Below, one piece after another: positions 58,387 to 60,197 of a stretch of DNA of 64,000 nucleotides (within the stretch, counting starts at the first letter, position 1; every line of letters begins with the position of its first letter). The position numbers and the translations under genes are program-made. Source of the stretch: Candidatus Bathyarchaeota archaeon. GTDB lineage: Archaea > Thermoproteota > Bathyarchaeia > TCS64. Location of the stretch: the NCBI GenBank assembly GCA_018396695.1, contig JAGTQU010000006.1:4152-68151 (forward strand), in the 5' to 3' direction. The notes beneath the pieces were generated by a model, which did not search any database, had not been told where the DNA came from, and saw only the letters and a program-made list of their open reading frames with translations.

Positions 58387-60197
58387 CTACACTGCCCACA
58401 TCGCATCTTTTTTCCTCTTAATCTCGATGAGTTCATCGAGGGCTTGCATATCATTCACCGTAAGCCTCATAGCAAACCTCATCTTCAGCTTTCTAGCTTG
58501 ATCTTCTGGAATATCCACAAATAGGATATCCTTCTCTTTTATATGTCTACCGAATATTGGCTTAGGCATAGAAACAGCTACTTCCATCCCCTCAAAGGCT
58601 TGAGAGATAGGTTGACCAGACTCCTGGATCTGAGTTATCTTACCCAGCCTCTCTCCCTCTCTGTTCACGATGTCAACGTTCGGCGTCAACTTTCCAGATA
58701 ACACCCTAACACCGAATATTGCAGGGTTTGATCTGCGAAAAACGAAACCCTCCATCACCTCTGCTTTACCCGGCTGCGTTAGACTCTCGAACTCCTGTCT
58801 CTCTTTCATTTCCTTCTCAGACTCCATCCACCTCATATAGTCGTCTATTAAATTGTATATGATATTGCTCCGGAAGATCGGTATCTTCTGATCAACTGCC
58901 TCGCGTTCAGCATCAGGAAGAGCCTTCACGTCAAATGCGAGAATCGCTGCCAGAAGTGGATCGCTATACTTAACTGAGACCGCCTCCATAACATCCCGCT
59001 TCGAAACATCTCCTATATCTGCTAGCCTTATCGTCACGCCTTTTGCATGTAAACTCTCTATCAACGCCTCAAGAGAGCCAAGAGTATTCGTTTTAACTAC
59101 TACACCTTTTTTATCACTCGATATTCTCAGCCTCTCGACCTCTGAACTTACCTCTTTCAGAGCCTCTTCCAATGTTAAACCCACTCCAACTGCTAGTAGA
59201 GGCGCTCCAGGTATTGCGTCTTCCAGGTTTGAAGCGGCTATCTTAACTCCTGCTGCTGCAGTCACCTCTGAAATAGTATTAAACTTTTTTCTAGGATCCC
59301 TGATCTCGTCTAGAGGCTGAGGCATAAGGATCGCGCGAATGTTTGTCTGTATAGGTCCATTCTTTCCCCCGATTACGATTTTATCTTCTTGTTTTAGAAC
59401 GCCATCGTAGATGATTGCGTTCAGGGTGATCCCTAGACCCGGCTCCTCTTTCACCTCTAAAACCGTCCCCCTAGCAGGTCCAAAACCTACGTTAAGCTTA
59501 TCTTGAAGATATTGTTGGGTTAAACCTATCAGGACGGCTAAAAGCTCACCTATACCTTCGCCCGTTTTCGCACTTACAGGGATTATGGTGACTTCTCTAG
59601 TGAAGTTCTTTACTTTATCGAATCTATCTGCTCTGAAGCCTATACGTGAGAGTGCGCCGATCATGTTGTATATTCTCGCGTCAAGGTCTTCTCTCACTAG
59701 AGTCTCCTGGCTCGAATAGGATCTCATGAATAACTCGTCTGGTTTGCTTTTCCAACCGTGTATCAGATCAAGTTTATTCGCAGCAACGATGAATGGCGTT
59801 CTCCTAGATTTGAGGATCTCGATTGACTCATAAGTCTGATTCTCGAATCCGTGCATTAGATCGATAACTAGGATGGCGATATCCGCAACCGAGCCTCCAC
59901 GCCTCCTAAGGTTAGCGAAAGCCTCATGGCCTGGGGTGTCTACAACTAATAGGCCAGGGATATTAATTGAGACTTTAAAATCTTTCATTAATTTTTGGGT
60001 TATAGCAACTAGGGTTTCAAGTGGAAAGAAACTTGCTCCTATCTGTTGAGTCATCCCTCCAGCTTCTCTAAGCTGGACAGCGGTTCCCCTAATCTTATCA
60101 AGAAGCGAAGTCTTCCCAGTGTCGAATGGCATCCGAAGAGCAGTTACTCTATCGGATCATGCCCGAGCATACACACTATTGGCTGTCTAAGAGGCAA
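58387..60197 (-). CDS. infB: Translation initiation factor aIF5B, two exons: 60197-60158 and 60125-58387 (592 aa after splicing)
   Basis: Exon 1 (TTG start) MPLRQPIVCMLGH; the junction restores VDTGKTSLLDKIRG; EAGGMTQQIGA, DTPGHEAF, NKLD, GSLEAL. Confidence 0.93.
60126..60157 (-). other. 32-nt bulge-helix-bulge intron in infB
   Basis: Central helix GGCA/UGCC, bulges UGA and AUU, inner helix UCCGA/UCGGA, outer helix UCG/CGA; canonical cuts give CAT GTC GAC (H-V-D). Confidence 0.88.

Follow-up and report, generated by a model that had tools for sequence, protein, structure and literature searches.

Here, we show that infB, the gene coding the translation initiation factor aIF5B, is split within its P-loop codons by a 32-nt insert in a 64,000-nt stretch of a Candidatus Bathyarchaeota archaeon genome (assembly GCA_018396695.1, contig JAGTQU010000006.1, positions 4,152 to 68,151; hereafter the window), and that homologous inserts occupy the same base in 10 other genomes of Bathyarchaeia. 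We consider it highly probable that the insert is a genuine and maintained bulge-helix-bulge (BHB) intron of the strict form, flanked by helices on both sides (hBHBh'), in the aIF5B mRNA of some Bathyarchaeia, and that it is most likely removed by the splicing endonuclease EndA and the ligase RtcB. All coordinates below are positions in the window, and the gene lies on the minus strand with the following parts.

60158..60197, minus strand: exon 1 of aIF5B (infB), read from the sequence, with the TTG start at 60197-60195, 13 codons, and the junction-codon base G at 60158.
60126..60157, minus strand: predicted 32-nt BHB intron, starting with nucleotide 3 of the 5' bulge and ending with nucleotide 2 of the 3' bulge.
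58387..60125, minus strand: exon 2 of aIF5B, with the junction-codon bases TC, the remaining G1 motif (DTGKT), G3 (DTPGH), G4 (NKLD), and the stop codon at 58389-58387.

The identity of the gene was examined by profile search with the open reading frame (ORF) of exon 2, which matched the NCBIfam model NF003078 (E = 1.3e-235, 783.6 bits against a cut-off of 468) and TIGR00491 (725 bits against a cut-off of 554.75), an equivalog-level assignment to aIF5B/archaeal IF-2. The ORF finder lists 58387..60132 (minus strand, 581 aa), an intact frame whose ATG lies inside the intron; its alignment with NF003078 begins at profile position 21, with the N-terminus and the start of G1 absent from the ORF. 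The missing codons are found on the other side of the insert, which is placed 40 nt after the TTG start and is flanked by ...CTC GGG CAT G (last base 60158) and TC GAC ACT GGG AAG ACT (first base 60125). The G1 motif GHVDxGKT does not occur complete in one frame in the DNA, being split after GH and one further base, and it is whole only once the 32 nt are removed. The resulting coding sequence is 1779 nt long (592 aa), and the open frames of uninterrupted relatives measure 593 aa and up. The window's TTG aligned with the ATG/TTG-CCT start of 23 intronless relatives, and an in-frame stop (60212-60210) sits 5' of it.

The RNA of the insert and its flanks can be drawn as an archaeal splicing motif with the elements listed here.

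60122..60166, minus strand: complete hBHBh' motif, delimited by sequence, fold and the pair count over 11 sequences.
UCG 60166-60164 / CGA 60124-60122, minus strand: outer helix h, 3 bp.
GGCA 60163-60160 / UGCC 60131-60128, minus strand: central helix H, 4 bp.
UGA 60159-60157 and AUU 60127-60125, minus strand: bulges of 3 nt each, on opposite strands.
60156-60152 / 60136-60132 (UCCGA/UCGGA) and 60150-60147 / 60140-60137 (AGAG/CUCU), minus strand: inner hairpin h'.
60146-60141, minus strand: hairpin loop.
Between 60158 and 60157 and between 60126 and 60125, minus strand: predicted cuts, after the second nucleotide of each bulge.

The 4-bp central helix GGCA/UGCC thus lies between the two bulges UGA and AUU, and the outer helix (3 bp) and inner helix (5 bp, extending to 9-10 bp) both exceed the at least two Watson-Crick pairs that the hBHBh' definition asks of h and h' (PMC7714728, cited from excerpts). 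In the minimum free energy (MFE) fold of 66 nt (-20.7 kcal/mol), the central helix appears with a 3-nt bulge on either side and an inner hairpin of 9-10 bp; the outer helix is drawn differently in this single-sequence fold, and the full hBHBh', including UCG/CGA, is predicted by RNAalifold on 11 sequences as well as on 5. Joining the exons places GHVD or GHID in frame in 11 of 11 sequences. An earlier reading of the window made from its letters alone (the sequence-only reading) holds on each of these points: the minus strand at 60157..60126 reads as it was quoted, the gene is aIF5B by the NF003078 match (E = 1.3e-235), the frame is broken as claimed (translation running on from exon 1 would end at a stop in the fifth codon, and 32 is not a multiple of 3), the helices and bulges of the strict BHB are present as described, with the full hBHBh' recovered from 5 and 11 homologues, and cuts after the second nucleotide of each bulge restore GHVDTGKT in frame with a spliced length of 592 aa.

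The insert is shared with other Bathyarchaeia. A protein search recovered infB from 39 of 41 related genomes, and at the 28 loci where the P-loop was readable, 5 carried a 32-nt insert at the identical base while 23 showed an uninterrupted GGx CAy GTx GAy. A covariance model built from the 5 insert sequences was then used for genome searches. Within the order, 6 of the 79 genomes searched had the insert, namely the window's own, all 4 of one genus, and the sole genome of another family. It was also located in 7 of 151 genomes of the class sample, including two of a further family (f18), and in the phylum sample of 151 genomes no insert was found outside the class. When 185,579 species genomes were scanned with a sequence pattern, 9 loci matched, each in a record titled Bathyarchaeota or Bathyarchaeia; 6 of these loci were duplicates and 3 were new, one of the latter being the record titled Bathyarchaeota archaeon BA2. 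In total, 11 distinct inserts of 31 or 32 nt occur in 11 species-level genomes of at least three families. All are placed after the first base of the codon following the His of GH[V/I]D, and the 31- and 32-nt variants restore the same reading frame. The exon sequence GGGCAT...TCGAC was present in 5 of 5 intron-bearing genes from the protein search versus 0 of 23 intronless genes, with GGGCAT alone in 2 of the 23.

Evidence for a selected RNA structure comes from base-pair covariation. The 11 insert sequences were aligned with MAFFT and pairs were counted for the specified structure (16 pairs, 174 cells). Pairing was found in 97.1% of the 174 cells, versus 32-47% in controls in which the 3' partners were slid by 1-3 columns. 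Both sides had changed, with pairing kept, in 7 of the 16 pairs (22 cells), corresponding to 7 of the 9 inner-helix pairs, and the covariation score was reached by 0 of 500 column shuffles. In the f18 introns, the inner-helix sequence is largely different and still pairs. The central helix is invariant in the 11 sequences except for one G-U, the middle pair of the outer helix h is broken in the two f18 sequences, and nucleotide 2 of the 3' bulge, an unpaired intron base, varies between U, G and A. Compensatory changes of the kind looked for in an archaeal hBHBh' intron are therefore present across the 11 sequences. The alignment of infB across relatives that the sequence-only reading had proposed as a check thus came out in its favor, with homologous inserts and compensatory changes in 10 other genomes and precise absence in 23.

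Coding evidence from exon 1 points in the same direction. Its 13 codons and start codon are kept in 11 of 11 intron-bearing genomes (TTG in 10, ATG in 1), and pairwise comparison among these genomes gave 210 synonymous versus 73 nonsynonymous codon differences, counted over pairs that are not independent, the nonsynonymous ones being I/L/M/V, A/C and M/V exchanges. In all 11 genomes, translation without splicing would run from exon 1 to a stop, at codon 5 in 9 of them and at codons 15 and 21 in the remaining two. Splicing would create GTC (Val) or ATC (Ile) as the junction codon, which fits the GHVD of intronless relatives. As judged from these codon comparisons, exon 1 is under protein-level selection; it is conserved as protein and would have no role unless joined, and therefore such selection makes sense only via the joining of exon 1 to exon 2.

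We also examined whether the host genome encodes the enzymes that such an intron would need. Both endA and rtcB, which the sequence-only reading had wished to see confirmed, are present: the EndA family (PF01974) has two matches in the genome (101.7 and 46.8 bits) and RtcB (PF01139) has one (536.5 bits), so that an EndA and an RtcB-type ligase are both available. The two EndA subunits are encoded on contigs C38 and C43, and RtcB on contig C90. The first EndA paralogue aligns end to end with crenarchaeal EndA catalytic chains (best 3p1z_B, E = 1.1e-41) and has a His in GPGIDHAPF where chain 3ajv_B has Ala; the second has a divergent sequence and lacks this His. From these alignments we infer a catalytic and structural pair of the heterotetrameric type, in which the second paralogue is probably structural.

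The tRNA genes of the genome offer a test of the cut rule. ARAGORN detected 26 tRNAs, 8 of them with introns, and cutting after the second bulge nucleotide gives exactly the ARAGORN boundaries for the introns of tRNA-Thr, tRNA-Lys and tRNA-Gly (18-22 nt). The in-frame infB junction therefore follows a rule that is valid for this genome's tRNAs. The remaining 5 of the 8 intron-containing tRNAs have no matching strict motif: 4 have none within the gene, and tRNA-Arg has only a non-matching 79-nt one. These 5 genes are located on contigs C14, C35, C43, C55 and C66, and several are about 108-117 nt long; the long genes without a strict motif point to relaxed motifs or to genes with multiple introns. 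Within the window, a tRNA-Pro(GGG) at 61363..61441 (minus strand) exceeds the usual length at 79 nt and has its anticodon at position 39; it may contain a short intron in a non-canonical place.

Taken together, we propose the following course of events. In the transcript, the exon bases UCG, GGCA and CGA, together with the intron's UGCC and its hairpin of 9-10 bp, would fold into the strict hBHBh'. EndA, composed of the catalytic subunit and the divergent, probably structural, paralogue, would cut after the second nucleotide of each 3-nt bulge, and RtcB would join the exons into ...CAT GTC GAC..., giving a 592-aa aIF5B with an intact GHVDTGKT. The 32-nt intron would be released, probably as a circle. 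We infer from sequence comparison that the infB transcript is cleaved and ligated in this manner, and that splicing precedes translation.

To place the intron in the history of the gene, we built a maximum-likelihood tree of 33 exon-2 proteins (10 intron-bearing and 23 intronless), rooted on one out-family row and leaving out L051, for which only 222 aa were available, and L029 and L031, which are truncated at contig ends. The intron-bearing genes branch off deeply one after another, and three intronless clades are nested between them. Intron presence requires a minimum of 4 changes on the tree, at least 3 of which are forced by well-supported branches, and the intron label is clustered (only 1 of 500 shuffles was as low). 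A single ancient gain followed by several precise losses would fit this topology, although the root was not inferred and gain and loss are not separable with certainty. The infB intron appears to be old within Bathyarchaeia, vertically inherited, and lost precisely several times, and this repeated precise loss therefore suggests that the intron is dispensable.

Several observations weigh against a genuine intron and deserve consideration. The fold energy of the single sequence is unremarkable (z = -1.82), with 10 of 200 shuffles folding equally well, and the strict BHB definition matches 10,587 places in the 1.9-Mb genome, which means that such motifs are common by chance. Because of these genome-wide matches and the weak z-score, a single motif proves little, and the more-than-chance status of the infB motif rests on the comparative data rather than on single-sequence energy. 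The comparative support itself comes from related, non-independent genomes, and three of the loci (L050, L051 and L054) were found by a pattern that fixes exon bases and were accordingly excluded from the count of exon-base conservation. In the tree, the window's aIF5B (L001) has a terminal branch of 0.31 compared with a median of 0.084. This could reflect relaxed constraint, with a compositional shift in a low-GC genome as likely an explanation, and the frame is intact. Finally, translation of unspliced mRNA could in principle begin at the ATG within the intron (GTG in f18) and give a protein truncated at its N-terminus.

This last point leads to the explanation that competes best with splicing, namely that no RNA is spliced and ribosomes either bypass the 32 nt, in a hop of the phage T4 gene 60 type, or start at the intron ATG, with the hairpin serving translation. 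We regard it as very unlikely. The ATG (60132-60130) shares the frame of exon 2 and is the start chosen by the ORF finder, and a start-like codon is found there in all 11 sequences (ATG in 6; GTG in 5, L044, L045, L050, L051 and L054), but this merely reflects the complementarity that constrains the 3' strand of the central helix. Initiation at this codon would yield a protein without the initial Gly of G1 or the strand before it, and would leave exon 1 functionless despite its conservation in 11 of 11 genomes. As for a hop, a stop after the take-off site and a hairpin are features of gene 60 bypass, and here the exon-1 frame indeed has a stop just past the 5' site and the insert has a stable hairpin. 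However, no matched take-off and landing sites of the gene 60 type were found: a hop from CAU to the CAU at the 3' end of the intron lands out of frame, and the landing triplet varies between CAU, CAG and CAA. What covaries is the geometry of a 4-bp helix with two 3-nt bulges, that is, an EndA substrate, and we know of no bypass signal that needs BHB geometry.

It is, if anything, even less probable that EndA cutting mainly destroys or limits the mRNA, or that the interrupted gene is decaying, with functional aIF5B coming from elsewhere or being unneeded. The long terminal branch of the window's aIF5B can be counted in favor of decay, a second infB copy is conceivable at 95.9% completeness, and the EndA of Haloferax also processes an mRNA 5'-UTR (PMC7714728, in excerpt). 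Against this, exon 2 is an intact 581-aa frame scoring 783 bits, and the whole-genome search (1.9 Mb, 91 contigs, 95.9% complete) gave a single infB match, so that the second intact infB which the sequence-only reading had named as a threat to its proposal did not appear. Moreover, exon 1 and the frame relation across the intron are kept in 11 genomes spanning deep branches of the tree, unlike what decay would leave, and removal of either insert length, 31 or 32 nt, leads back to the same frame. To our knowledge, aIF5B is a universally conserved core factor.

That the insert is an assembly or sequencing artefact, or an inconsequential recent DNA insertion, has a negligible probability: the assembly is of the metagenome type and fragmented into 91 contigs, but homologous, diverged and covarying inserts sit at the same base in 11 independently assembled genomes, which excludes for practical purposes the assembly error that the sequence-only reading had allowed for, and the flanks show no target-site duplication or other transposon feature, which speaks against a transposon-type insertion. 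A self-splicing group I or group II intron was also considered and rejected, the insert being only 32 nt long and matching no Rfam family; an Rfam search of 59800-60500 gave as its sole match a snoRNA model (E = 0.98) located outside the intron.

With the BHB intron as the favored reading, we asked whether other genes of this genome carry similar ones, as the sequence-only reading had anticipated for this lineage. A genome-wide scan with the strict BHB definition and no homology filter has little power, and it neither shows nor excludes more introns. Among the 10,587 strict motifs, 860 would join two otherwise broken frames, 288 of these being 60 nt or shorter, and 138 short frame-joining motifs had an inner helix of at least 5 bp, with infB among them as a positive control. 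The other candidates, inspected by eye and unfiltered for homology, were unconvincing (gaps between adjacent genes, AT-rich matches, and frames already open), and the expectation of further introns was therefore not borne out by a second convincing case in this low-powered scan. A scan specific to P-loops returned infB and two matches unlike NTPase P-loops, with no other credible P-loop rebuilt. Besides infB, this genome has two genes with GHVDxGK[ST], both uninterrupted, indicating no spread to paralogous GTPases, and cbf5 is likewise one open frame in this genome (profile positions 7-321 of 322).

The interruption bears on annotation. At the intron-bearing loci L007-L009, L028, L035, L044, L045, L050, L051 and L054, ORF finders choose the intron ATG or GTG as the start, and public infB annotations in intron-bearing genomes, including the Bathyarchaeota archaeon BA2 record, are probably N-terminally truncated. 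Such automatic calls of an infB truncated at the intron ATG can affect marker-gene trees, completeness estimates and pseudogene counts.

Two further elements upstream of infB were noted, both of them assigned a function from their sequence and position.

60204..60207, minus strand: putative Shine-Dalgarno-like purine motif GGTG, 6 nt 5' of the TTG start.
60237-60231, minus strand: putative TATATTA box upstream of infB.

The upstream regions of infB in relatives contain GGTG or other purine-rich stretches and ATATTA/TTAATTA boxes at comparable distances. Elsewhere in the window, the gene for aIF2-gamma (56598..57836, minus strand) has no ATG, GTG or TTG between an in-frame TAA and its intact P-loop GHVDHGKT. 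An in-frame ATA (57836-57834) follows a GGAGAGGG run, with a TTTATAAG box near 57891, and this ATA may be a non-canonical start codon.

The cbf5 pre-mRNA intron was reportedly described by Watanabe 2002 and Yoshinari 2006, and also by Yokobori 2009. The sequence-only reading knew of cbf5 as a precedent and of none in infB, and the literature we covered agrees, yielding cbf5 plus one 5'-UTR case in Haloferax. In the portions available to us, a 2020 paper names the cbf5 mRNA intron as the sole one reported apart from the 5'-UTR case of its own (PMC7714728), a 2009 paper describes splicing as unconfirmed for genes other than cbf5 (PMC2738675), and in the references of a 2025 structural paper the cbf5 work is the only mRNA-related citation (PMC12397907). 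Within literature on BHB introns that leaves subscription journals and supplements outside its coverage, no report was found for infB/aIF5B or for any Bathyarchaeota mRNA. Within that coverage, infB would be the second protein-coding gene family with an in-frame BHB intron. Were cbf5 joined by a second gene, it would be clear that the tRNA machinery splices mRNA in more than that one instance; the present example comes from another class, concerns a core translation initiation factor, and has covariation over 11 genomes behind it. The motif also provides a compact test substrate of about 45 nt for EndA and RtcB acting on mRNA, as well as a natural system for the competition between splicing and translation in cells without a nucleus.

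Compared with canonical archaeal tRNA introns (hBHBh', position 37/38), the infB intron has the same geometry and cut rule, a similar size and the same enzymes. It differs in that the host RNA is an mRNA and that the exon strands of the motif are codons (Leu-Gly-His, Val/Ile-Asp), which places these bases under a double constraint. A different kind of intervening element probably occurs in the same gene of other archaea. The NCBIfam model NF011418 (1049 positions), to which exon 2 aligns only from model position 474, presumably represents the intein-bearing type of aIF5B, with the intein in the P-loop a few codons from the site of this intron. Like the infB intron, such an intein would interrupt the P-loop region of aIF5B; in contrast to the intron, an intein spans hundreds of residues and is excised from the protein. 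If this identification is right, one conserved site of aIF5B hosts two kinds of intervening element in different archaea.

A functional parallel can be drawn with eukaryotes, in which the splicing of XBP1/HAC1 mRNA by IRE1 and RtcB is a regulated stress switch. As proposed for infB, a short mRNA intron is removed by an endonuclease and a tRNA ligase, and the frame change decides whether the active protein is made; the endonuclease and the RNA motif are different, and the eukaryotic event is regulated by stress. A regulatory role of the infB intron, as suggested in the sequence-only reading, is possible but gained no support here, and the several precise losses that fit the gene tree speak for a dispensable intron. 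We consider it unlikely, though worth stating, that the intron is a kept checkpoint of the XBP1/HAC1 kind, tying aIF5B synthesis to EndA/RtcB (tRNA-maturation) capacity, and that it is the tip of a wider, so far unannotated set of BHB introns in the mRNAs of Bathyarchaeia. IRE1/RtcB splicing of XBP1/HAC1 mRNA is named in the available part of PMC13149111.

Within the archaea, the mRNA 5'-UTR BHB intron of HVO_1309 in Haloferax volcanii is likewise an EndA substrate in an mRNA, but it lies in an untranslated leader, interrupts no frame, and belongs to a euryarchaeon (PMC7714728, in excerpt). A close parallel is the cbf5 pre-mRNA intron of Crenarchaeota (Desulfurococcales and Sulfolobales), whose patchy distribution is explained, in the accessible part of the source, by lineage-specific precise loss (PMC2738675). 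Both are short BHB introns in a coding frame, in lineages with a two-subunit EndA, with a patchy distribution attributed to precise loss, and in both cases gene finders call the gene truncated or frameshifted. Removal of the cbf5 intron by the tRNA splicing machinery was shown experimentally, whereas splicing of infB is predicted from sequence. The infB intron further differs in its gene and class (Bathyarchaeia), in its position 40 nt from the start within P-loop codons, and in its strict hBHBh' form. It does not belong to the cbf5 intron family, and would represent an intron that works alike from outside that family.

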